Shown: positions 13,756 to 28,500, counted from the stretch's first letter. The stretch is 34,108 bases of DNA from Pseudomonadota bacterium (GCA_043825875.1 JBDRRF010000053.1:1-34108); one strand, 5' to 3'. Program-made: numbers and translations. Notes: generated by a model not told the origin, from the letters alone.

Positions 13756-15675
13756 TCAGGAAAGAGGTGTGCCGGGTTTTACTTTCTTATCGAGAGTTGC
13801 AAGCGTGCAGCCGTTTTCATCAATTGCGGCAAGCAGCATGCCGTTTGAAACTATCCCCATTATCTTTGCGGGTTTTAAATTTGCAACTACTATGACCTGC
13901 TTTCCGATCAATTCTTCCGGGCTGTAGCTTAAGGCAATGCCTGATATAATGGTTCGGGTATTGCCAAGATCTATTTCGAGTTTAAGAACTTTTTTTGCAC
14001 CTTTAATTTTTTCTGCTTTTACTATGGTTGCGACCCTTAAATCAATTTTTGAAAGCAGATCTATGGTTATTTCAGGTTTTATTTCCAAAACAGCAAGCTC
14101 TGCCTTTGCTTCGGTTACAGCCGTGTCCTCTTTTTTCTTATCGATTCTTGGGAAAAGGGTAATTGCTTTTGGTATACTTGTTCCAGGTGATAGTACTTTC
14201 CATGATTTAAGATGATTTAAATCATAAAATTTACTGTCCGGGTTCTGGCCCAGATGGTGCTGCATGGTTTTTGCCGTATCAGGCATTACAGGATAAATAA
14301 GCCCTGATACAATTCTTAATCCTTCAAGAAGATTATATATGACAAATTCGAGCTGTTTTTTCTCGGATTTCTTTTTTGCAAGCTCCCAGGGTGCAGTAGT
14401 ATCAACATATTTGTTCATTTGACTTATAAATTCCCAAACCGACATTAAAGCCTTATGGAATGAAAAACTTTCCATATCTTTTTCATATTCTTTTAAAGCA
14501 CAAGCCGCATCAAACTTAAGACCGCCTTGCATTTCTTCCTCGGTTTCGGAACTAATTTCGGGTATAACACCACCAAAATATTTGTGAACCATTGTGATTA
14601 CCCTTGAAAACAGATTTCCTATATCATTTGCTAAATCAGAGTTGATACGAGAAACCAGGGCTTCCTCATTGAAACCGGAATCAAGGCCGAAAACCATTTC
14701 TCTTATAAGAAAATATCTGAAAGCATCCAGACCATATGTGTTTTTAAGCGAAAGTGGTTCAATAACATTTCCTATGCTTTTTGACATCTTACTCTGATCA
14801 ACATTCCAGTAACCATGGACATTAAGATGCTTATATAATGGAATCCCTGCGGCTTTAAGCATTATTGGCCAGTATATTCCGTGAGGTTTTAAAATGTCCT
14901 TTGCAATAATATGCTGGGCATTGGGCCAGTACTTATTAAATTGCTCGCCATCTGGGTAACCCAGTGCAGTAATATAGTTAAGAAGGGCATCAAACCAAAC
15001 ATAAGTTACATAATTATCATCAAATGGAAGAGAAATTCCCCATTCAAGACGTGTTTTGGGGCGGGAAATGCAAAGATCTTCAAGGGGCTCTTTTAAAAAA
15101 GACAAAACTTCATTTTTATATCTTTCGGGTCGTATAAAATCCGGGTTTTGTTTTATATGGTCTATAAGCCAGTCCTGATATCGGCTCATTTTAAAAAAAT
15201 AATTTGATTCCTTAATCGATTCCGGCTCAGTTTCATGATCAGGACATTTCCCGTTAACAAGTTCTCTTTCCGTATAAAAACGTTCGCACCCGAAACAGTA
15301 CAAACCTTCATATTCGGAAAAATAAATATCGCCCGAATCATTAATTTTCTGAAGCACCTGCTTAACTGTTTTAATATGTGAAGGGTCAGTTGTACGAATA
15401 AAATAGTTATTATTTACATTCAGTTCAGGCAGCAGATTTTTAAAAAGCCCGCTTATTTTATCTGCATATTCTTTAGGCTTTAAATCCTCCTTCTCTGCTG
15501 CACGAACAACTTTATCGCCATGTTCGTCTGTTCCTGTGAGAAAGAAAGTATCTTTGCCAAGCATTGAATTGTATCTGCACACAACATCTGCAATAATTGA
15601 AGTATAAGCATGCCCAAGATGAGGTTTTGCATTAACGTAATAAATCGGTGTTGTAATATAAAATGTATTATTCAT
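13756..15675 (-). CDS. metG: Methionine--tRNA ligase with C-terminal tRNA-binding (Trbp111/EMAP-like) domain
   Basis: TTPIYYVN, HLGH, GTDEHG, YVWFDAL, KMSKS and C-terminal VVANLKPAK. Confidence 0.98.
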   Translation of the reverse strand: MNNTFYITTPIYYVNAKPHLGHAYTSIIADVVCRYNSMLGKDTFFLTGTDEHGDKVVRAAEKEDLKPKEYADKISGLFKNLLPELNVNNNYFIRTTDPSHIKTVKQVLQKINDSGDIYFSEYEGLYCFGCERFYTERELVNGKCPDHETEPESIKESNYFFKMSRYQDWLIDHIKQNPDFIRPERYKNEVLSFLKEPLEDLCISRPKTRLEWGISLPFDDNYVTYVWFDALLNYITALGYPDGEQFNKYWPNAQHIIAKDILKPHGIYWPIMLKAAGIPLYKHLNVHGYWNVDQSKMSKSIGNVIEPLSLKNTYGLDAFRYFLIREMVFGLDSGFNEEALVSRINSDLANDIGNLFSRVITMVHKYFGGVIPEISSETEEEMQGGLKFDAACALKEYEKDMESFSFHKALMSVWEFISQMNKYVDTTAPWELAKKKSEKKQLEFVIYNLLEGLRIVSGLIYPVMPDTAKTMQHHLGQNPDSKFYDLNHLKSWKVLSPGTSIPKAITLFPRIDKKKEDTAVTEAKAELAVLEIKPEITIDLLSKIDLRVATIVKAEKIKGAKKVLKLEIDLGNTRTIISGIALSYSPEELIGKQVIVVANLKPAKIMGIVSNGMLLAAIDENGCTLATLDKKVKPGTPLS

Positions 15676-18375: not shown

Positions 18376-20637
18376 TTAACCGCCCATCCCACCAAGACCT
18401 GTAAAATTAATCAAAAAAGAATATCTCTGGTCATCTACCTCATCAGTATAAAGAAAATCAATCGACCAGCATTGGGCAGTATAAAGAAATCCCAGAGAGG
18501 TTCTTATCCTGTTGTTTTCGCGGATATTTCGCTCATCTTCGGCTTTAAACAAAAGGCCTTCAAAGATTTTTATATTAAAAGTTGAAAATATTGATTCCAC
18601 AAAATCCCGCTGGAATCTGTATTCCCATCCAATCGAATCTCCGCGATAATCTGATAATGTTCCGGAAATGTTCCGGTCAACAAAATTACTGTCATAAGGA
18701 GACCATTTGGCATCTGCCGATAACGATAAATATTTTACCGGAGTATATTTTACTTCTCCATATATGGGAGAAAAAGGCCTTTTGTTGTTTGGGTTTGCCC
18801 AAATAACCGGGTCCTCTTCCCTTTCTTCATTAATGTTATAGCTTTGCTCAAATTTTATCCTCAAAAATTCATTATACCCATAAGAAGGATTTTCAGCTTT
18901 TTTTTCGCCTGATTTTCCGAATTTATTTATTTGAGTTTTTGAGGTAAATGTGTTCAGCAAAGAATATGTTATTAGGTTCTTTGCCCCAATTCGGTCTATG
19001 CTGTCAAAATAAGGATACCCGGTCTGTTTTTTATCCGGAATATACTCATAAATAATCTGGGGCTTAATGGAATGTTTAATGCTGTCCACAAATTCTGTGT
19101 CAATTTTAAGAATTCTGAATACCTCTGTGGAAAGATCAAGTTTGATATCATACATTTCTCTGTCATATGTATCTTTATTTATAGTGTTATCACCCTGATC
19201 TATATACCACGTTGTCTGCCTTAACCCTATTGACGGCTCAAATGAAAAATAGTTATTATATCTGTAAGGCAGATAGAATCTTGGGTATAAATCTATGCGT
19301 TGGCCCGTTACGCCGTCTAGTCTGTAAAAATTGGTATATTCGGAATCAAGATCGGCATACAAAGGGGTATCCATAAATTGCTGTTTTGATCCGTTAAACT
19401 CTATAAAAGGCAGCTTTTGCAAGGTATCGTCATAATCATTCCATCTGCGGTTAACAACATTATCATACCAGCGGGCTTCTGCATTTAATGTAAAAGAAGA
19501 CCAGTTTTTCGTAAAATTCAGACTGTTTACTCTAATAGGGTCATCGTAATTATCTATCTCCCGCCCAAAATCTCTATTAAAATATCTTTCTGTTGAGCTG
19601 AAACCATTGGGGCCATCTTTAAATTCATTAAGATAATCCTGATCGCTTACAATATCTAAATCCAGTTTTGCATTAAAACCGTAAGGCATCGCCTGGTCAG
19701 TTTTCATTCTGAACCAGTACCTGTCGGAATTGGTTCGCGAATATGTATCACCGGTATATCCCCATTGCTCACTTGCTTTAGTACCGTCATCCACCTTTTT
19801 GTCATCAAGAAAATCATACATTATGGTTCCCTTTGATTCCGGGCTTAAAACATAACGGTATTCAGCCCCAAGTTTTTCACCCCGCTTGCTCATATGGTGC
19901 AAATAAAAAGTTGCATCCGTATTTTCATTTATGGCCCAAAAATAAGGCTGATTATATTCTATACCTTTGCGTTCGGACTGAGCTGCCTCAGGAGCAAGAA
20001 GACCTGACTGCCGCTTACTTTTTGCAGGAAAGACGGCAAAAGGCACGTAAACAACCGGCAATTTTTTTGTCCAGAATGTCGCATGATTTATATAACCATA
20101 TCCTTCCAAAGTAATTTTAAGTTTTTTACCTGTTATTTTCCATGCAGGCACATCACCATCACAGGTTGAAACTGTTGCTTTTTCGGCTGTATAGGTATTT
20201 TTACCTGTTTTCTTAATATTATCTCCACTTATGTGATAATTATTTTCTTTTAAAAAAATGTTTCCATTATAAATAACGCCTGTTTCGGACTTTAAATCCA
20301 CATCAATGCCGGAACCCCTGATAACATCCTGCCCCAGATTCATAACTACATTATTCTTCGCATATGCCGTTGATGTTGTTCGATTCAAACGAATAAAATC
20401 AGCGGAAAGCTTTTTGCCTGTTTTGAAAACAATAACATTTCCGGAGGCGGTATATACATCAGTATTACGGTCATAATAAATTTCATCGGCAGTAATATTC
20501 CATGGCTCATCCGGATTATCGTTTTTAAAAGGATCGCTAAATGAATCCACTGCAAAAACTCTTGTAGATATTATAAAAAGGAAAGCAACTGCAAATAACA
20601 GAATATATGAATAGCGAATATTATATTTTTTCAGCAC
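18376..20637 (-). CDS. lptD: LPS assembly outer-membrane protein LptD
   Basis: Signal peptide, OstA-like N-domain (ITADEI...ASGNV), TCD..PAWKI, KRQSGLL, and a beta-barrel C-terminus with QCW. Confidence 0.9.
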   Translation of the reverse strand: MLKKYNIRYSYILLFAVAFLFIISTRVFAVDSFSDPFKNDNPDEPWNITADEIYYDRNTDVYTASGNVIVFKTGKKLSADFIRLNRTTSTAYAKNNVVMNLGQDVIRGSGIDVDLKSETGVIYNGNIFLKENNYHISGDNIKKTGKNTYTAEKATVSTCDGDVPAWKITGKKLKITLEGYGYINHATFWTKKLPVVYVPFAVFPAKSKRQSGLLAPEAAQSERKGIEYNQPYFWAINENTDATFYLHHMSKRGEKLGAEYRYVLSPESKGTIMYDFLDDKKVDDGTKASEQWGYTGDTYSRTNSDRYWFRMKTDQAMPYGFNAKLDLDIVSDQDYLNEFKDGPNGFSSTERYFNRDFGREIDNYDDPIRVNSLNFTKNWSSFTLNAEARWYDNVVNRRWNDYDDTLQKLPFIEFNGSKQQFMDTPLYADLDSEYTNFYRLDGVTGQRIDLYPRFYLPYRYNNYFSFEPSIGLRQTTWYIDQGDNTINKDTYDREMYDIKLDLSTEVFRILKIDTEFVDSIKHSIKPQIIYEYIPDKKQTGYPYFDSIDRIGAKNLITYSLLNTFTSKTQINKFGKSGEKKAENPSYGYNEFLRIKFEQSYNINEEREEDPVIWANPNNKRPFSPIYGEVKYTPVKYLSLSADAKWSPYDSNFVDRNISGTLSDYRGDSIGWEYRFQRDFVESIFSTFNIKIFEGLLFKAEDERNIRENNRIRTSLGFLYTAQCWSIDFLYTDEVDDQRYSFLINFTGLGGMGG

Positions 20638-20957
20638 AATTTCCGATCCGTTTATTGTGTATATAAGAAATCTTTCCTTAATTAAATGTAATAATACTTA
20701 AATGCGAATCATTAATTTTAATTAACCAGTATCTGCTTGAAAGTTCAGCCAGTTTGAGACAAATATTGGCCGATAGAATATAAGAGGGGTTTATAAAAAG
20801 CAAGAGACAGTTTTTAAAAAAATAGTTTCTTTCAAAAAGATTAAATTTGGTCTAATATAAAAAGCCGGATTCGCTGAAAGTGCATTTTTGGTTTTTTGAT
20901 CTTCAAACCTTTTTTGCCAACCGGGCAATGATATAAAAAAATTTAGGTTAAATACAT

Positions 20958-21713
20958 ATGAACGTGCTTATAACCAACGATGATGGCATTTATGCCGAAG
21001 GTCTTGCGGCATTATATAAAACATTTATAAAGTCTCACTCTGTAACAGTGGTTGCTCCCGAACGTGAGAGAAGCGCAGTAAGTCACAGCATTACTCTTCA
21101 TAAACCTCTTCGTGCAAGCAGAATATGTCTGGAAAGCGGACTCTCAGGATATGCCGTAAACGGCACGCCGGCAGATTGCGTCAAGCTGGGAATTCTTGAA
21201 ATACTTGGTTCTAAACCGGATATAGTTATATCCGGTATAAATCCGGGTGCAAATATAGGCATTAACCTGAATTATTCGGGAACTGTTTCGGCAGCTAAAG
21301 AGGCTGCTTTGTGTGGCATTAACGCTATTGCAGTATCTATACAGGGATATGCTTCAACCCATCTGGATAATGCAGCCATTTTTGCTGAAAAACTTGCAAG
21401 AAAAGTTGTCGAAAAACAACTGCCTCGAGGAACCTTTCTCAATGTTAATTTGCCGGATATGCCTTTTGAAAAAACAGCCGGAATAAAAATCAGCACGCAG
21501 GACCTATCGGTTTTTTCAGAGTTTTTCGAAAAAAGAATTGATCCCAGAAACCGCACATATTATTGGCAGGGAGTCAGCTCAAATCATTCGGGATATAACC
21601 CTGATAGTGACGGAGAGGCACTTTCCGGTAATTATATATCAATAACTCCGATAAAGTGTGATATGACGGACTATAATATGATAGAAGATATTAAGAAATG
21701 GGACATGGATTAA
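20958..21713 (+). CDS. surE: 5'/3'-nucleotidase SurE
   Basis: LITNDDG, VVAP, GTPADCV, SGINPGAN and YSGTV. Confidence 0.96.
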   Translation: MNVLITNDDGIYAEGLAALYKTFIKSHSVTVVAPERERSAVSHSITLHKPLRASRICLESGLSGYAVNGTPADCVKLGILEILGSKPDIVISGINPGANIGINLNYSGTVSAAKEAALCGINAIAVSIQGYASTHLDNAAIFAEKLARKVVEKQLPRGTFLNVNLPDMPFEKTAGIKISTQDLSVFSEFFEKRIDPRNRTYYWQGVSSNHSGYNPDSDGEALSGNYISITPIKCDMTDYNMIEDIKKWDMD

Positions 21714-21759
21714 AAAGTAAATTGCAAATTTTACTGTTTGAAATACTATCTAATAAACG

Positions 21760-22749
21760 GTGGAAAATATGAAAAAACAATATGCCGGATCTGTAAGGGC
21801 AGGAGAATTAGTGAATGATATTTTTGTTTTGTCTGAAAAAAATATTTCACAAAAAAAAGATGGAAGCGATTATATTAATGTTCTTCTTTCAGACAAAACA
21901 GGAAAGCTTAAGGGCGTTGCATGGGATAATGTGGATAAAATATCAGCAGACAAAAATCCGGGTGATTTTGTTCATGTTAAGGGAAGCATATCGGAATACA
22001 AAGGGGCTTTGCAGATTGTAATAAAAGATATGGAAAATATATCTTCCGATTCAATTGATCCCTCCGATTTTCTTCCTTCAACAAAGCAAAATATCGATTT
22101 AATGTTTGAACGTTTGCTAAAGCTTTCCGGCTCAATAGAAGAGAAAAACTTAAAAGCACTTTTGGATGCATTCTGGGCTGACAACAAGTTTGTCGAAAAC
22201 TTTAAAATAGCTCCTGCTGCAAAAAAAATGCATCATGCATATTCAGGCGGCCTGTTAGAACACACGCTTTCAATGGCTCTTTTAGCAGACAAAATCGCAG
22301 GTCATTATATTGGAATAGACAGAGATCTTCTTATTGTGGGCACAATTCTTCATGATATCGGAAAAGTCAGGGAATTTGTTTATAAATACAGCATTGATTA
22401 TTCGGATGAAGGCAGGCTTTTAAGCCATATAGTAATAGGAATTGGTATGCTTGATGAGAAAATCAAAACCATTAAAGAGTTTCCTGAGACTCTTGCAGTA
22501 CTGTTAAGGCACATGATAGTAAGCCATCATGGCACAAGAGAATTTGGTTCTCCGGAGCCTCCAAAAACAATTGATGCGGTTTTGCTTAATTATATAGATG
22601 AAATTGATTCAAAGATAAGCGGCATACGTGATTATATTTCTTCAGATGATGCCGGAGGAAACTGGACATCCTATCACAGGCTACTTGGGCGCCATTTTTA
22701 TACGGCAAATAACAACATGCAAAACAAAGAAGATGAAATTAGCGAATAA
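21760..22749 (+). CDS. yhaM: 3'-5' exoribonuclease YhaM/Cbf1 family (OB fold + HD)
   Basis: N-terminal OB fold, PAAKKMHHAY, GGLLEH, LHDIGK and SHHG. Confidence 0.88.
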   Translation: MENMKKQYAGSVRAGELVNDIFVLSEKNISQKKDGSDYINVLLSDKTGKLKGVAWDNVDKISADKNPGDFVHVKGSISEYKGALQIVIKDMENISSDSIDPSDFLPSTKQNIDLMFERLLKLSGSIEEKNLKALLDAFWADNKFVENFKIAPAAKKMHHAYSGGLLEHTLSMALLADKIAGHYIGIDRDLLIVGTILHDIGKVREFVYKYSIDYSDEGRLLSHIVIGIGMLDEKIKTIKEFPETLAVLLRHMIVSHHGTREFGSPEPPKTIDAVLLNYIDEIDSKISGIRDYISSDDAGGNWTSYHRLLGRHFYTANNNMQNKEDEISE

Positions 22750-22777
22750 ACCAGTTTAAAGTAACAAGGTAAAAATA

Positions 22778-23398
22778 ATGTTTATTACATTTGAAGGTAT
22801 CGAAGGCTCAGGGAAAACTACACAGATACGACATGTCATGGAATTTTTAGAAAATTCAGGAAAAGCTTGCGTAATGACCCGTGAACCAGGGGGTACAATT
22901 ACAGGGCAAAAAATCCGTTCTATTTTGCTTGACCCTGATAATAACGGAATGGATCATTCGACTGAACTCCTGCTATATCTGGCTGATAGAGCTGAACACG
23001 CAAACAAAATTATAAAGCCTGCTCTATCGGCAGGAAAAACCGTTTTATGCGACAGATATTATGACGCAACTAAGGCCTATCAGGGTTATGCACGCGGATT
23101 GGATATGGATTTGCTGGATAAATTGCATAAACTGATAATACATGATTTAAAGCCGGATATAACAATTCTGCTCGATCTTGACCCCAAAACCGGGCTTTCA
23201 CGGGCATGGAAGCAGATAAATGCAGGGGAAAGGACTGAATTTGAAACAAGATTTGAAAAAGAAACTCTTGATTTTCATGATAAAGTCAGAAAAGGCTATC
23301 TTGAGCTTGCGCGCATTGAGCCTAAACGTTTTATAATTGTAGATGCCACAAAAGATGAAAACCAGGTAAAAAAAGATATAATAAAGGCACTTTCTTGA
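22778..23398 (+). CDS. tmk: Thymidylate kinase
   Basis: FITFEGIEGSGKTT, REPGG, CDRY and AYQG. Confidence 0.97.
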   Translation: MFITFEGIEGSGKTTQIRHVMEFLENSGKACVMTREPGGTITGQKIRSILLDPDNNGMDHSTELLLYLADRAEHANKIIKPALSAGKTVLCDRYYDATKAYQGYARGLDMDLLDKLHKLIIHDLKPDITILLDLDPKTGLSRAWKQINAGERTEFETRFEKETLDFHDKVRKGYLELARIEPKRFIIVDATKDENQVKKDIIKALS

Positions 23399-25677
23399 TG
23401 AGCTATTCTATCTTAGATACAATAGGCAACACCCCTCTTGTTGAAATCAAAAAATTAAACCCGAATCCCAAGGTAAAAATTCTTGCCAAGCTTGAATACT
23501 TTAATCCCGGTGGTTCAATAAAAGACAGAGCAGCTCTTTTTATGATCGAAGATGGAGAAAAGTCGGGAGAGCTTACCCCTGATAAAACCGTGATAGAGGC
23601 AACGAGCGGAAATACAGGCATCGGCCTTGCGTTGGTCTGCTCAATTAAGGGTTACAAACTTCTTCTTACCATGTCCGAATCGGCAAGCATTGAACGCCAG
23701 AAGATACTAAAAGCCCGCGGAGCCGATATTCTTCTTACTCCAGGACATCTTGGTACTGACGGAGCTATTGAAGAAGTATACCGTCTTTGCAGGGAAAATC
23801 CGCCTGCTTATTTCATGACCGATCAATTCAATAATGAAGCAAACTGGAAAGCGCATTATTATACTACAGCAGAAGAGATCTGGAAACAGACGGAAGGCAA
23901 AATTACGGCAGTTGTTGCCACCCTTGGCACAACCGGGACTGTAATGGGAATTTCGCAAAGGCTTAAGGAATATAATCCGGATATAAAAATAATTGCGGTA
24001 GAACCATATCTGGGCCATAAAATCCAGGGCCTCAAAAATATGAAGGAAGCATACCGGCCTGAGATTTACGATAAAAAGCGCATTGATAATATTGTCAATA
24101 TCGATGATGAAGAAGCTTTTGAAATGGCAAGACGCCTTGCAAAAGAAGAAGGATTGTTTGTGGGAATGAGCAGCGGAGCTGCTATGGTGATCGCACAAAA
24201 CAAAGCATCTGAAATGGAAGATGGCACAATAGTTGTTATCTTTCCGGATAGCGGAGAAAGATATTTAAGCACTTCCCTTTTTACAGTAAAAGAAAAAATA
24301 AACCTTTCGCTTTTTAATACCATTACAAGAAGCAAGGAACCTTTTGAGCCTATTAACCCCGGAAAAGTATCCGTTTATTCCTGCGGGCCGACCGCACATG
24401 CAAGGATGCATCCGGGAGAGTGCCGCCGTTTTGTGTTTTCGGACCTGTTGTGCCGTTATCTTGAATACAGAGGATATTTAGTAAAACATATAATGAACAT
24501 AACGGATCTTGACGACAAAACCATAAACGGATCTGAAAAAGCGGGTCTTGAACTATCAGAATTCACCGAAAAGTATATTGATCTGTTTCAGGAAGATCTC
24601 AAACTTCTTGGAATCAAACCAGCAGAAGATTATCCAAAGGCTAGTGAACATATTAATGATATGGTTATGCTTGCAGAAAAACTTGTTAAAAAAGGCTATG
24701 CATATGAAAAGCTGCGCTCTTTGTATTTTGATATCTCCAGGTTTTCGGATTACGGAAAATTATCGGGAATTGATTTAAATAAAATAAGAATAGGCGCAAC
24801 CGTTGACCTTGATGAATATGAAAAGGATAATCCGAGAGATTTTACCCTGATGAAAAGAGCAAAACTTTCGGAGCTTAGACGGGGGATTTATACTGCAACC
24901 GACTGGGGGAATGTCAGGCCTTCCTGGCATATCCAGTGCGCTGCAATTGCAATGAAATACCTTGGCGAAAGTTTTGATATTCATACAAGCAGCAGGGAAC
25001 TCATCTTTCCGCATCATGAGAATGAAATTGCCATTTCAAAGGCTTTGACAGGAAAACCTCTTGCGAAATTCTGGATGCACTGTGACAGGGTGCTTGTTGA
25101 TGGGAAAAAGGTTGATGAATCAAAAGAGCGGCTTTGTGTTTCAGACCTTGCAGATATGGGCTATACGGGCAGAGAAATAAGATTCTGGCTGATTTCAACT
25201 CACTACAGAAAGCCCATTGTCTTTTCAAGCGAACGGCTTGAAGATGCAAGAAAATCCCTGAAAAGGCTGGACACATGTGTTCGTGCTTTGCTTGATATCA
25301 AAACAGGAGAGCCATATCCTGAAATTGATCAGCTTCTTTATGATATTAAAAGCGGGTTTGCGGGTGCAATGGACGATGATCTTAACATATCTGCCGCGCT
25401 ATCTTCCATATTCAAGGTTATAAGAAAGGTAAATGTTCTTACTAAAGATAAAAATATAGACGAAACCGGCGCAAAAAAAATTCTGGACGCATTTAAAGAT
25501 ATTGATTCTGTGCTTAATATTTTTGATTTTGGATACTGCTTTCTTGATCCGGAAGTAAAACGTCTTATAGAGGATCGTGACAAGGCAAGAAAAGAAAAAA
25601 AATGGGACGTTGCAGACGATATCCGCAAAAAACTGGAATCAATGGGAGTTGCAATAAGAGACCGGAAAACCAGATAA
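23398..25677 (+). CDS. Fusion of PLP-dependent cysteine synthase (CysM-type) and a degenerate cysteinyl-tRNA synthetase-like domain
   Basis: N-half: IGNTPL, SIKDR (PLP Lys), TSGNTG, GTTGT and PDSGERYLS. C-half: FNT, CGPT, NITDLDDK, WHIQC, FPHHENE, HYR, AMDDDLN and the anticodon helix. Single uninterrupted frame; TGATG overlap with tmk. Confidence 0.93.
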   Translation: MSYSILDTIGNTPLVEIKKLNPNPKVKILAKLEYFNPGGSIKDRAALFMIEDGEKSGELTPDKTVIEATSGNTGIGLALVCSIKGYKLLLTMSESASIERQKILKARGADILLTPGHLGTDGAIEEVYRLCRENPPAYFMTDQFNNEANWKAHYYTTAEEIWKQTEGKITAVVATLGTTGTVMGISQRLKEYNPDIKIIAVEPYLGHKIQGLKNMKEAYRPEIYDKKRIDNIVNIDDEEAFEMARRLAKEEGLFVGMSSGAAMVIAQNKASEMEDGTIVVIFPDSGERYLSTSLFTVKEKINLSLFNTITRSKEPFEPINPGKVSVYSCGPTAHARMHPGECRRFVFSDLLCRYLEYRGYLVKHIMNITDLDDKTINGSEKAGLELSEFTEKYIDLFQEDLKLLGIKPAEDYPKASEHINDMVMLAEKLVKKGYAYEKLRSLYFDISRFSDYGKLSGIDLNKIRIGATVDLDEYEKDNPRDFTLMKRAKLSELRRGIYTATDWGNVRPSWHIQCAAIAMKYLGESFDIHTSSRELIFPHHENEIAISKALTGKPLAKFWMHCDRVLVDGKKVDESKERLCVSDLADMGYTGREIRFWLISTHYRKPIVFSSERLEDARKSLKRLDTCVRALLDIKTGEPYPEIDQLLYDIKSGFAGAMDDDLNISAALSSIFKVIRKVNVLTKDKNIDETGAKKILDAFKDIDSVLNIFDFGYCFLDPEVKRLIEDRDKARKEKKWDVADDIRKKLESMGVAIRDRKTR

Positions 25678-25698
25678 AAGTTTTTAACAAGGACCACA

Positions 25699-26679
25699 AT
25701 GAAACCTTTATATTTTCCATTTACATATATCAATGATGCTAAAGCAGCAAATCTGTGCGCCTGTTTTAAACAGATAGCCGTTTACCAACCAGGTTTTTTG
25801 AACCTTTCTGAAAACATGCAAAAACTTTCCGATAAAGGCCTTATCGATATCCGGGTTCCCGGCAAAGGGGATGAAGCAAAGCTTAAAGCTCTTTTAAATG
25901 AATACAAAGCATGGGCAGAACTTCATCAAAAAAGCGATATAGCTTTTTTAAACGCAACGGAAGGGAAACATCCTTTTTTTGATGAAACATTTCCATCACA
26001 GCTTGCTTCGCAGATTAAAAAAAATATGGGTGGGAACCAAGTAAAAGCAAAAACCGATTTCCTCTTTAATTCAAGATTGTTTCTTGGCATAGCTCAGGAA
26101 TATGACCAGCAGCAGGAGGCAATAATAAAAAACCTGGCTTCTGTAAGTGAAATGGAAAAGAAACTTCTATCAGATTTAACCGATGAAGATGAAAATATAT
26201 TCAGTAATAGTGCCGGAGCTTTTTTTAAAACAGGCCATGAACCGGAAAGATACAAAATAAAAGAAAGACTTGAGGCATGGATATATCTTTTAATAAATGA
26301 TAAGGAAAAACCGTGTTTTTTTATTACAGACAGCAAAGATGTAATTGATCTTATTATAGAAACAAATCCTGATTTTGAAGAAGTTGTTGATTTGCAGAAA
26401 ATTCCTGTCTGCATTGTCCCGGATATTATGGATAACTGGCAAATTATGCTTGCCAAACAAGTAGAAGGTTTGTTATCGGATAAAAACTTTAAAGTGAGCA
26501 AAGATATTAATAATATCCCTGCTGTTAACAAGACCGAAAGAAACGTATCTTTGAAGATTTTCAGGATAAGCAATAAATCCTGGTACGAATTTTTCCAAAA
26601 TATCCTTGCCAAAGATATTGATGTTATACAAAATGACGATAAAATTAATAAATGCATATTAATTGGCATTGTTGAATAA
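25699..26679 (+). CDS. Hypothetical protein
   Basis: 326 aa ORF with AAGGA RBS, 21 bp after the fusion gene; begins MKPLYFPFT; no family recognised. Confidence 0.75.
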   Translation: MKPLYFPFTYINDAKAANLCACFKQIAVYQPGFLNLSENMQKLSDKGLIDIRVPGKGDEAKLKALLNEYKAWAELHQKSDIAFLNATEGKHPFFDETFPSQLASQIKKNMGGNQVKAKTDFLFNSRLFLGIAQEYDQQQEAIIKNLASVSEMEKKLLSDLTDEDENIFSNSAGAFFKTGHEPERYKIKERLEAWIYLLINDKEKPCFFITDSKDVIDLIIETNPDFEEVVDLQKIPVCIVPDIMDNWQIMLAKQVEGLLSDKNFKVSKDINNIPAVNKTERNVSLKIFRISNKSWYEFFQNILAKDIDVIQNDDKINKCILIGIVE

Positions 26680-26860
26680 TCCCGTTTATCTTTATGATAT
26701 AACATCAAATAAATTCTATCCCCCCGTTTCTTTTTTTTATTCAAAAAAATGAAGAAGAAGGCTTGACTCATATTATCAATTGGTATATGGACTTTGCCCA
26801 ATACTATAAAAAATAGCTGAGCAAACTATTTATTGTTCAATATAGAAAGGAGAAAATAAA

Positions 26861-27049
26861 ATGGCTTTTAATCCTATCGTAGATGAAGACAAATGTCAGG
26901 GATGTGCTGAATGTGTTGATGTATGCCCGGTTGAAGTTTTTGAAATCCAAGATGAGAAATCCGTAGCGGTTAATGCGGAAGAATGTCTCGGTTGCGAAAG
27001 CTGTGTAGAAGTTTGTGAACCAGCCGCAATTACAATTGAAGAAACATAA
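26861..27049 (+). CDS. 2[4Fe-4S] ferredoxin
   Basis: CQGCAECVDVCP and CLGCESCVEVC; acidic, 62 aa; AAGGAG RBS. Confidence 0.95.
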   Translation: MAFNPIVDEDKCQGCAECVDVCPVEVFEIQDEKSVAVNAEECLGCESCVEVCEPAAITIEET

Positions 27050-27058
27050 TTATTAAAG

Positions 27059-27110
27059 CCCCCGGTTTATATACCGTTTTAAGAGCCGGGGGACTTTGAT
27101 TTTTTCTTTA
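27059..27110 (+). terminator. Possible intrinsic terminator after the ferredoxin gene
   Basis: CCCCCGG (27059-27065) / CCGGGGG (27086-27092) followed by a T-rich tract; the loop is long. Confidence 0.5.
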
Positions 27111-27246
27111 TATACTAATCATAATCATTTCTGTTTTTTTATCATTCAGATTCATAAGGGTATTTTTGTCTTTTCAAATTAACATTATCTGAATTTTCCA
27201 TTCTGATATATTATATATAAACATCAATAAATAATGTATAGATACC

Positions 27247-28500
27247 ATGATATATCCTGATACAGCCCTGGTATCACAAAAGCTGTATAATTCTCCGGTA
27301 AATGATATCAAGAGTGAACTTGACTCCTCTTTATCTGCTATTTCTTTTTCCGGTAAAATCAAACCGGGAGAAACTGTTGCCATTGCTGTGGGCAGCAGGG
27401 GTATAGATAAAATAGATTCAGTTGTTTATAGCTGTGCAAGATTTCTTGAAAATCTTGGATTAAAACCTTTTATAATTCCGGCTATGGGAAGTCATGGCGG
27501 GGCAAATGCCGAAGGCCAGAAAAATATACTTGAAAAACTTAAAATAAGTGAAGGTACAATCAAAATTCCGGTTTATCCGGACATGGAAACAGATAGCATC
27601 GGCAAGCTATCTTGTGGTTTAGATATCAATTTTTCAAAAAAGGCACTTTCAGCCGATCATATTGTTGTAATCAACAGGATTAAACCTCACACAAAATTTA
27701 CGGCAGATATAGAAAGCGGCATTTGTAAGATGCTTACCATAGGGCTTGGAAAAGAAAGAGGCGCATCAGCTTTTCACAATTTTGCCGTACAACACGGCTT
27801 TGGTATTATTGAAGAAGCTGCCGATTATATTATTAACAAACTAAATATCTTGTTTGGAATCGCTCTTCTTGAAGACGGTTATGGTAACCTTTCAAAGATT
27901 GAGGTGATACAACCCCACAATATTATCAGTCGCGAAAAAGAGCTTTTAATACAGGCAAGAAAGATGATGGGAAGTATTGCCTTTGATTTTCTTGATCTTC
28001 TGATCATTGATTTTTTCGGAAAGGATATAAGCGGCATAGGCATGGATTCCAATATCACAGGAAGGCACAGAGATATTGTCGGAGATTTTTATACTTCTCC
28101 TCATGCTAAGCGTATTTTTGTAAGAGATTTATCTCCCGGCTCCGATGGAAACGCTAATGGAATAGGGCTTGCCGATATAACTACTACCCGCCTTGTAAAT
28201 GGCCTTGATATGAATAAAACCTATGCCAATGCCATAGCGGCCATTTCCCCCGAAAAAGCTGCTATCCCGATTCATTTCGGCACAGACCGCGAATGCCTTG
28301 AGGTTTGCGCAAAAACACTCGGCCTTGAATCATTGCAAAATTCCCGCATTGTAAGAATAAGAGATACCAAACACCTTGATCTGATACAGGTTTCAAAAGC
28401 TCTTGAAGAAGAAATTGAATCAAACCCGAATTTAAAAAGGGTTTCAGATTGGGAGCAATTTAAATTTGATGGGAATGATAATCTTACTTCCTTTTCTTAG
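27247..28500 (+). CDS. Lactate racemase (LarA)-like / DUF2088-DUF362 domain protein
   Basis: VAIAVGSRG, PAMGSHGGA, NRIKPHT, ESGICKMLTIGLGK and GKDISGIGMD. Confidence 0.8.
   Translation: MIYPDTALVSQKLYNSPVNDIKSELDSSLSAISFSGKIKPGETVAIAVGSRGIDKIDSVVYSCARFLENLGLKPFIIPAMGSHGGANAEGQKNILEKLKISEGTIKIPVYPDMETDSIGKLSCGLDINFSKKALSADHIVVINRIKPHTKFTADIESGICKMLTIGLGKERGASAFHNFAVQHGFGIIEEAADYIINKLNILFGIALLEDGYGNLSKIEVIQPHNIISREKELLIQARKMMGSIAFDFLDLLIIDFFGKDISGIGMDSNITGRHRDIVGDFYTSPHAKRIFVRDLSPGSDGNANGIGLADITTTRLVNGLDMNKTYANAIAAISPEKAAIPIHFGTDRECLEVCAKTLGLESLQNSRIVRIRDTKHLDLIQVSKALEEEIESNPNLKRVSDWEQFKFDGNDNLTSFS

Follow-up and report, generated by a model that had tools for sequence, protein, structure and literature searches.

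The stretch of DNA analysed here, referred to as the window, comprises 34,108 nucleotides from a Pseudomonadota bacterium (GCA_043825875.1 JBDRRF010000053.1:1-34108). At positions 23398..25677 of its plus strand, it encodes a cysteine synthase joined in one polypeptide to a paralog of cysteinyl-tRNA synthetase (CysRS). The CysRS-like half has lost the ATP-binding motifs of the enzyme, is maintained by purifying selection, and retains the residues that read the anticodon of tRNA(Cys); a separate, real cysS gene accompanies it, and the fusion architecture is distributed widely. The label 'cysteine--tRNA ligase', under which the fusion stands in hundreds of genomes, is very probably wrong. From sequence comparison, we propose that the CysRS half may be a non-charging, tRNA(Cys)-binding module that tunes the attached cysteine synthase, a reading to which we assign a rough probability of 0.45. 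In this proposal the binding of tRNA, the regulatory coupling and the direction of that coupling are all putative.

The gene forms a single open frame without internal stops, encoding 759 residues followed by a stop, and its ATG overlaps the TGA of the upstream gene tmk by one base (TGATG). A preliminary description of this DNA had placed the joint between a CysM-type enzyme and a CysRS fold near nucleotide 24295 of one frame, and the junction indeed lies at about residue 300. The CysK/CysM-type, pyridoxal phosphate (PLP)-dependent cysteine synthase domain, identified by Pfam, NCBIfam and its motifs, spans residues 1-296 (23398..24285, +), and is followed by an inter-domain linker at residues ~289-302 (24262..24303, +), predicted by AF2 to be flexible. 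The CysRS paralog is full-length, covering residues 303-759: the Rossmann fold with the connective peptide (CP) insertion and the KMSKS-loop region occupies residues 303-618 (24304..25251, +; Pfam and alignment to 1li5), and the anticodon-binding domain at the C-terminus occupies residues 716-759 (25543..25674, +; Pfam and alignment to the E. coli enzyme). The Pfam matches are PALP (6-284), tRNA-synt_1e (316-618), DALR_2 (654-709) and CysS_C (716-759).

In NCBIfam, the N-terminal half exceeds the cut-off of the cysKM model (TIGR01136; 376.1 bits against 344.15) and falls under those of both equivalogs (cysM, 356.6 against 394.2; cysK, 333.5 against 350.95), so that it belongs to the CysK/M family and can be assigned to neither member. 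The C-terminal half matches the cysS model TIGR00435 over positions 1-458 of 466 with 373.7 bits against a cut-off of 340. With the MshC model (TIGR03447), it reaches 191.9 bits, below the cut-off of 485.1, and the ATP motifs are likewise lost. Structurally, it aligns as one fold from end to end with 8QHP (E 1e-102, the closest solved structure) and with 1LI5 (7e-79). The full-length AF2 model has a mean predicted local distance difference test (pLDDT) score of 84.8, with confident domains, and a predicted template modelling (pTM) score of 0.60; the linker is disordered, with residues 289-299 below a pLDDT of 50.

Residue-by-residue alignment to E. coli CysRS (1li5) defines the changes in the catalytic site and agrees with the motif changes and coordinates given in the preliminary description. 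HIGH is replaced by HPGE (residues 338-341; 24409..24420, +), GGGSD, the GGGxD motif, by TSSRE (residues 530-534; 24985..24999, +) and KMSKS by KVDES (residues 571-575; 25108..25122, +), which places acidic residues (E, E and D/E) at the positions where these motifs bind the ATP phosphates. The zinc site is kept: C329 within CGPT (24382..24384, +) corresponds to the E. coli ligand C28, C514 within WHIQC (24937..24939, +) to C209, and H539 and E543 within FPHHENE (25012..25026, +) to H234 and E238. W510 corresponds to W205, the residue adjacent to C514 and equivalent to E208 is Q513, and I546 occupies the Q241 position. The retention of the C28, W205, C209, H234 and E238 equivalents and of the C-terminal RDKARKEKKWDVADDIR...RD, as claimed earlier, is thereby confirmed.

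In the anticodon-binding domain, R727, R731, W736, D740, R743, G750 and D755 are the equivalents of E. coli R423, R427, W432, D436, R439, G446 and D451. According to the accessible part of PMC12684709, 1U0B shows Arg427, Asp436 and Trp432 touching G34 of tRNA(Cys), with Arg423 reaching it through a water network; Arg427, Trp432, Asp436 and Arg439 are the anticodon-domain residues mutated to switch anticodon specificity in the accessible part of PMC13449415. The YGxLSG motif of the CP insertion is likewise kept, and an xSGx stretch of deltaproteobacterial CysRS, which maps onto it by motif only, is linked to the first acceptor base pair in the available text of PMC5389517.

In the window's genome, a separate 486-residue cysS located on another contig (G000:C15:22133-23557; 581.5 bits) carries CGPT, HIGH, GGGKD and KMSKS intact. 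Stand-alone cysS genes over the cut-off are found in 37 of 37 further carriers (27 from the window's order and 10 from other orders), which brings the presence of a second, canonical cysS to 38 of 38 genomes. All 26 extracted genes have intact motifs: 21 are of the HIGH/GGGxD/KMSKS kind (GGGKD in 17; 520-605 bits; L088-L107 among them), and five (L110-L114) are of a HIGN/CGGxD/KMAKS kind (432-450 bits) with DVHHTNE, or NVHHTNE in one, where the other kind has FPHHENE. The genome encodes 45 tRNAs, including one tRNA-Cys(GCA), of ordinary type, and one tRNA-Sec.

The ratio of nonsynonymous to synonymous substitution rates (dN/dS) is reported for two within-genus pairs only, since dS is saturated beyond the genus. 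It amounts to 0.075 for the synthase half and 0.105 for the CysRS-like half between G000 and L008, and to 0.060 and 0.088 between L009 and L010, so that both CysRS-like values indicate purifying selection. Taken with the intact cysS in every carrier checked, these values uphold the earlier view of a repurposed pseudo-synthetase rather than random decay. Mean pairwise identity was further compared between the dead half and the canonical CysRS of the same 21 genomes. Over the whole domain, the values are 0.58 and 0.62, respectively. The dead half is less conserved in the KMSKS loop and stem-contact (SC) fold (0.46 vs 0.62), the first Rossmann half (0.58 vs 0.67) and the second Rossmann half (0.71 vs 0.83), and the corresponding values are 0.74 vs 0.71 for the CP insertion, 0.50 vs 0.41 for the helical domain and 0.47 vs 0.53 for the anticodon-binding domain. 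Constraint is thus relaxed at the ATP elements and held where the real enzyme touches tRNA. The dead half is also more basic, with a mean net charge of +2.0 compared with -10.4 for the canonical enzyme of the same genomes.

The synthase half possesses SIKDR with the PLP lysine K42, the TSGNTG Asn loop (69-74), the GTTGT Gly loop (177-181) and GMSSGAA (256-262). The first three, described as intact beforehand, are present here and are constant or differ only mid-motif in 34 aligned fusions; across the 86 members tabulated (46 at order level and 40 at phylum level), SIKDR, TSGNTG, GTxGT and GMSSGAA show little or no variation. In the window's genome, which is 99.8% complete, the fusion is the sole CysK/M match over the cut-off. 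The stand-alone cysK survives as a remnant with an internal deletion and stops (G000:C114:10403-10728, -), located in the interior of a 35.9-kb contig, which leaves this genome with no intact cysteine synthase other than the fusion. Stand-alone cysK is intact in three of three sampled same-genus genomes. Across the order sample, 32 of 129 carriers, about a quarter, have a fusion-type match as their sole CysK/M match at E <= 1e-60 (both figures being hand counts from search tables), and 18 of these 32 genomes reach a completeness of at least 95%. The presence of cysE, which runs off a contig edge (G000:C80:46-357), makes O-acetylserine (OAS) a plausible substrate. Two stand-alone cysteine synthases of ~300 residues, L046 (G059) and G124:C45:4654-5532, show 56-58% identity to the synthase half of the fusion; they come from fusion-lacking members of the order and may represent either split forms or kin of the gene that preceded the fusion.

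Erosion of the active site across the family

The best 120 database matches are all 758-765 residues long, share 74-96% identity with the protein and have the fusion architecture; the named relatives are called 'cysteine--tRNA ligase' by their sources, in line with the preliminary description. Among 121 close homologues, the architecture recurs in all 121, and the replaced motifs appear fixed as HxGE (in most), HTSSRE and KVDEx, a recurrence by which the pattern is not due to chance. CGPT is present in 121 of 121, as is the C209 equivalent (119 WHIQC, 2 WHLQC), and the E238 equivalent, E543, is changed to K, I or V in 14.

Within the order, 129 of the 151 genomes sampled contain the fusion or a large portion of it (best E <= 1e-150); at the same threshold, it is present in 120 of 301 sampled genomes of the phylum, mostly in an all-or-none manner per family. 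The 'cysteine synthase' of Desulfovibrio ferrophilus is a heavily eroded member. In a quick maximum-likelihood tree (LG+G4; Shimodaira-Hasegawa-like approximate likelihood ratio test (SH-aLRT) supports only; 95 hand-chosen rows, with outgroup rows that are not monophyletic), 62 of 63 fusion rows fall into a single clade with a support of 99, which also includes a few stand-alone or fragmentary metagenome sequences. The fusion outside the clade, P0125, is a CysM-CysRS protein from a metagenome-assembled genome labelled Nanoarchaeota; it keeps all catalytic motifs intact (HIGN, HTGGID, KMSKS and Q241) and clusters with ordinary stand-alone CysRS at a support of 93, which indicates an independent fusion.

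Nested within the fusion clade, P0138 is a 468-residue stand-alone CysRS-like protein with HIGL, HTSGQD and KMSRS, from a cluster of 58 members, many of exactly 468 residues; unfused, near-intact forms thus seem to exist in metagenomes. L044 was considered as a stand-alone dead CysRS and rejected: the sequence is truncated where its 2852-base contig ends and so provides no evidence for a split form. One genome, G125, has two full-length fusion copies on different contigs (L042 and L043), in both of which the zinc cysteines are replaced (SGPA, WHIQS) along with a change to FPHHENK.

Across the order, the replaced ATP motifs are variable, and the KMSKS position is hypervariable. Among 41 degenerate fusions, the H of HIGH is retained at a frequency of 0.51, its G at 0.71 and the second lysine of KMSKS at 0.07, compared with 0.78 for the C28 equivalent and 0.76 for the C209 equivalent. 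The common pocket substitutions are E208Q (0.95), Q241I (0.95), G204S (0.88), G201V (0.85) and S210A (0.85). Of 75 columns conserved at 90% or more in 80 canonical CysRS, 40 persist in at least 90% of these 41 fusions, and the 15 that persist in at most 15% of them lie in and around the ATP motifs.

In other orders, many members retain HLGN or HLGL, HTSGxD, KMSRS and WHIEC. Near-intact ATP-like motifs (HxGN/KMSRS) occur in 12 of the 62 bacterial fusion rows and are lost in 50, with at least seven changes on the tree; both zinc cysteines are present in 45 and lost in 17, with at least four changes. No row of the 62 has the ATP motifs without the zinc cysteines. Q241 is lost in 62 of 62 and the GG pair in 59 of 62, positions conserved in 97% and 100%, respectively, of the 80 canonical CysRS, so the whole clade left the canonical active site at its base. 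The near-intact relatives in other orders indicate that the loss of the ATP motifs is derived and repeated. In terms of order, these distributions indicate that the ATP motifs decayed repeatedly and that the amino-acid site followed in some lines. The earlier statement that loss is confined to the ATP site therefore holds for this protein and its near kin, and fails for the family, in which near-intact motifs appear beyond the order and the zinc cysteines are lost in more than one line.

The anticodon readers behave differently from both sites. They were counted in the 61 bacterial fusions that have residues at these positions, including the 17 without zinc cysteines. All 61 preserve the counterparts of R423, D436 and D451. 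At the R427 position, 56 carry R and 5 carry K; at the W432 position, every one has an aromatic residue (W, F or Y); and the counterparts of R439 and G446 are each preserved in 60. This variation matches the range in the canonical rows, and in an alignment of 34 fusions, the reader residues of the anticodon domain are invariant or at least 90% conserved.

Candidate roles of the CysRS-like half

In the proposed mechanism, the synthase half would act as a housekeeping OAS sulfhydrylase-type cysteine synthase, tethered by the flexible linker to a CysRS paralog that is predicted to be unable to activate cysteine with ATP. The paralog would bind tRNA(Cys) through its unaltered anticodon-reading C-terminal domain and its conserved acceptor-side CP insertion. 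The dead half would then read the state of the tRNA(Cys) pool and tune the attached synthase; in members that keep the zinc site, the cysteinyl group or free cysteine may also be read. A more specific version, in which the dead CysRS gates the synthase according to the tRNA(Cys) pool as a protein-level counterpart of the T-box or GCN2, perhaps together with the 326-residue product of the adjacent downstream gene, is possible on the sequence evidence and is held tentatively. Of the sensors considered in the preliminary description, one for tRNA(Cys) is the best match, since the 61 fusions counted all retain the anticodon readers. One for cysteine at the zinc site cannot be the family-wide role because the zinc cysteines are lost in 17 of 62.

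Several points weigh against a tRNA(Cys)-reading module. The full-length AF2 model predicts no fixed inter-domain interface through which an allosteric signal could pass, a lack of fixed arrangement that, in such a model, would speak neither for nor against allostery. A tRNA(Cys) bound in the canonical mode excludes the real CysRS at the same time, so the module might compete with charging rather than sense it. There is no evident way in which charged and uncharged tRNA would be discriminated, especially in the 17 of 62 members without zinc cysteines. Retention of the anticodon-domain residues might in principle have a structural cause. Finally, no tRNA gene lies near the fusion, and the lone tRNA-Cys(GCA) of the genome is ordinary.

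The alternative that survives best, although it is rather unlikely, is a sensor of the product, in which free cysteine at the zinc site would feedback-inhibit the synthase in the manner of HisZ and tRNA binding would be incidental. All four zinc ligands and the W205 equivalent are kept in this protein, CGPT and the C209 equivalent are universal among its 121 close homologues, and the pocket substitutions are themselves conserved in the 41 degenerate fusions (E208Q and Q241I at 0.95, among others). This reading is opposed by the 17 of 62 fusions that, through at least four changes, have lost the zinc cysteines and yet remain full-length with their anticodon readers, by the replacement of the E238 equivalent in 14 of the 121 close homologues, and by the presence of cysE in the genome, with which the classical feedback point exists.

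An unlikely alternative is that the CysRS-like half binds neither ligand and serves folding, solubility, oligomer geometry or docking, for example of the 326-residue neighbour. The progressive erosion of the active site would fit such a scaffold, as would the co-occurrence of the neighbour's family with the fusion. That family is present in 82 of the 301 phylum-sample genomes, 75 among the 120 fusion carriers and 7 among the 181 non-carriers, a split that was counted by hand from two tables and in which related genomes are not independent. However, a scaffold leaves unexplained why surface residues that read the GCA anticodon are retained in 61 of 61 fusions, and why the tRNA-contacting CP and helical modules show the same degree of conservation as in the real enzyme.

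The preliminary description had also raised the possibility that the PLP enzyme is brought to an aminoacyl-tRNA(Cys) for cysteine synthesis or sulfur transfer; in a broader form of this idea, the target could be tRNA(Cys) itself and the reaction could be persulfide chemistry. Such tRNA-directed chemistry is improbable, even though tRNA-binding determinants are kept beside a sulfur-handling PLP enzyme. The synthase half belongs to the ordinary CysK/M enzymes of fold-type II, and its TSGNTG loop is intact. This loop binds the free alpha-carboxylate of the substrate, a group that an ester-linked aminoacyl-tRNA lacks. The fusion is, moreover, the only cysteine synthase in 32 of 129 carriers and must therefore make free cysteine. 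The SepRS/SepCysS route, as described in the accessible part of PMC5424206, offers a precedent, but SepRS, the mischarging enzyme it would require, was not found in the 99.8%-complete genome (best match 27.1 bits against a cut-off of 380.65), and the earlier suggestion of tRNA-dependent cysteine synthesis is thus disfavoured.

It is most improbable that the fusion is still a working, if odd, cysteinyl-tRNA synthetase within a bifunctional protein: it does exceed the TIGR00435 cut-off (373.7 against 340), HxGN, KMSRS and the zinc site persist in relatives from other orders (12 of 62), and the independent archaeal fusion has every motif, but none of HIGH, GGGxD and KMSKS is preserved here, the phosphate-binding positions carry E, E and D/E, Q241 and GG are lost in 62 and 59 of the 62 bacterial fusions, and an intact cysS stands beside the fusion in 38 of 38 genomes.

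Neighbouring genes

Upstream of the fusion lies tmk (thymidylate kinase; 22778..23398, +), translationally coupled to it through the TGATG overlap. The order surE, HD/OB-fold protein gene, tmk and fusion (20958-23398 in the window, plus the fusion) recurs across the order of bacteria. The HD/OB gene product has 329 residues, an oligonucleotide/oligosaccharide-binding (OB) fold and an HD domain, and is YhaM-like by its domains; the presence of an RNA-end nuclease-like gene in one string with a putative tRNA-binding pseudo-synthetase may or may not be meaningful.

Downstream, a candidate partner of 326 residues (25699..26679, +) begins 21 nt past the fusion stop. It matches no Pfam family and nothing in NCBIfam under an E value of 0.15, and its database relatives are all 'hypothetical protein' entries without Pfam domains; Desulfatibacillum alkenivorans and Desulfobacterium spp. 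appear among the source labels of genomes with this gene. The protein has a conserved N-terminal motif, M-x-P-x-YFPFT, and a dN/dS of 0.21 against its nearest homologue. Of 40 order-level loci, 31 have a same-strand homologue immediately downstream of the fusion (the profile was trained on 25 of these rows), and two loci of other orders (L053 and L056) have one immediately upstream instead; the family is absent at the fusion-adjacent position in two of three sampled same-genus genomes. As the profile was built from one order, misses are expected in distant carriers. The AF2 model of the protein (pLDDT 77.6, pTM 0.75) has no Foldseek match in the PDB at E <= 0.001 (best 0.76). A wide VIA-align search gives a best Z of 5.0, to a helical hairpin, with GT-B-like rows at Z 3.6-4.0 within noise, and scores in the ESM Atlas are at most 0.88, under the trust level. 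Its predicted binding to fusion residues 300-759 (score 0.00, mark 0.32) speaks neither for nor against an interaction.

Over 20600-27300, promoter and terminator scans are at the level of chance (23 matches vs 22.0 expected and 6 vs 5.4 expected, respectively). Two metatranscriptome runs of the same study share almost no sequence words with 22700-26800, which argues neither for nor against expression. Past the 326-residue gene, positions 26861-28500 (+) encode a 62-residue 2x[4Fe-4S] ferredoxin and then a 417-residue LarA-N/DUF362-like protein; in 6 of 40 order-level loci, a LarA-like gene lies no more than 1.6 kb downstream. Elsewhere in the window, a 639-residue open reading frame (13756-15675, -) has two weak cysS-profile matches (34.5 and 30 bits) and is presumably another class I synthetase.

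Related systems and significance

Several known systems share part of this architecture. In GCN2, a HisRS-like domain is a pseudo-synthetase fused to an effector enzyme, binds uncharged tRNA and reports amino-acid supply. A eukaryotic protein with a kinase as its effector, GCN2 reads many tRNAs, whereas the effector of the fusion is a biosynthetic enzyme, its readers are specific for the GCA anticodon, and its binding of tRNA is putative. T-box leaders of Gram-positive cysteine genes couple the expression of cysteine-supply genes to the charging state of tRNA(Cys). These are RNA elements acting on transcription, whereas the protein domain of the fusion would act on the enzyme itself.

The HisZ/HisG pair resembles the fusion in that a catalytically inactive paralog of the cognate synthetase is joined to a biosynthetic enzyme of the same amino acid. 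HisZ is not known to have an anticodon-binding domain. It is a separate subunit of class II origin that senses the amino acid; in contrast, the fusion contains a class I paralog, fused in cis, whose anticodon domain persists and whose amino-acid site is gone in part of the family. In the short-form ATP phosphoribosyltransferase, HisZ mediates allosteric control by histidine, according to the accessible part of PMC9437257. CysRS paralogs with roles beyond ordinary charging include MshC, the mycothiol cysteine ligase (PMC9437257), and CysRS* of Desulfobacterales (PMC5389517). As far as the accessible parts of these two papers describe them, both are ATP-dependent ligases, unlike the fusion, and CysRS* lacks the anticodon domain and charges the selC* tRNA. 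The fusion is the opposite of CysRS*, with the anticodon domain kept and the ATP site lost. With canonical CysRS (E. coli CysS, 1LI5/1U0B), this protein shares the zinc ligands and anticodon readers, whereas the equivalents of HIGH, GGGxD, KMSKS, E208 and Q241 are changed and a PLP enzyme is attached.

No description of a cysteine synthase-CysRS fusion was found in a full-text literature search, outside which lie subscription journals and supplements, and the accessible parts of PMC2922099, PMC5424206, PMC5388404, PMC9437257, PMC5389517 and PMC8762117 describe none. New here are the series of eroding active sites, the comparison of rates within the same genomes, the archaeal fusion of independent origin, the remnant of cysK and the gene for the 326-residue neighbour.

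The ligase label hides the role of the fusion as the only cysteine synthase in about a quarter of its carriers. If the gating version of the proposal is true, the family would record a stepwise conversion of a synthetase into a tRNA sensor, in which the ATP site goes first, the amino-acid site next and the anticodon readers never. The active sites of its members range naturally from near-intact to fully eroded, with no change to the anticodon domain, and this gradation makes the purpose of dead synthetases directly testable. If a tRNA(Cys)-binding module does tune the synthase, it would represent a new coupling of amino-acid synthesis to translation, in which a class I pseudo-synthetase with tRNA recognition is joined to a biosynthetic enzyme. 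For the physiology of sulfate reducers, the finding bears on how cysteine supply is controlled in sulfide-rich cells.

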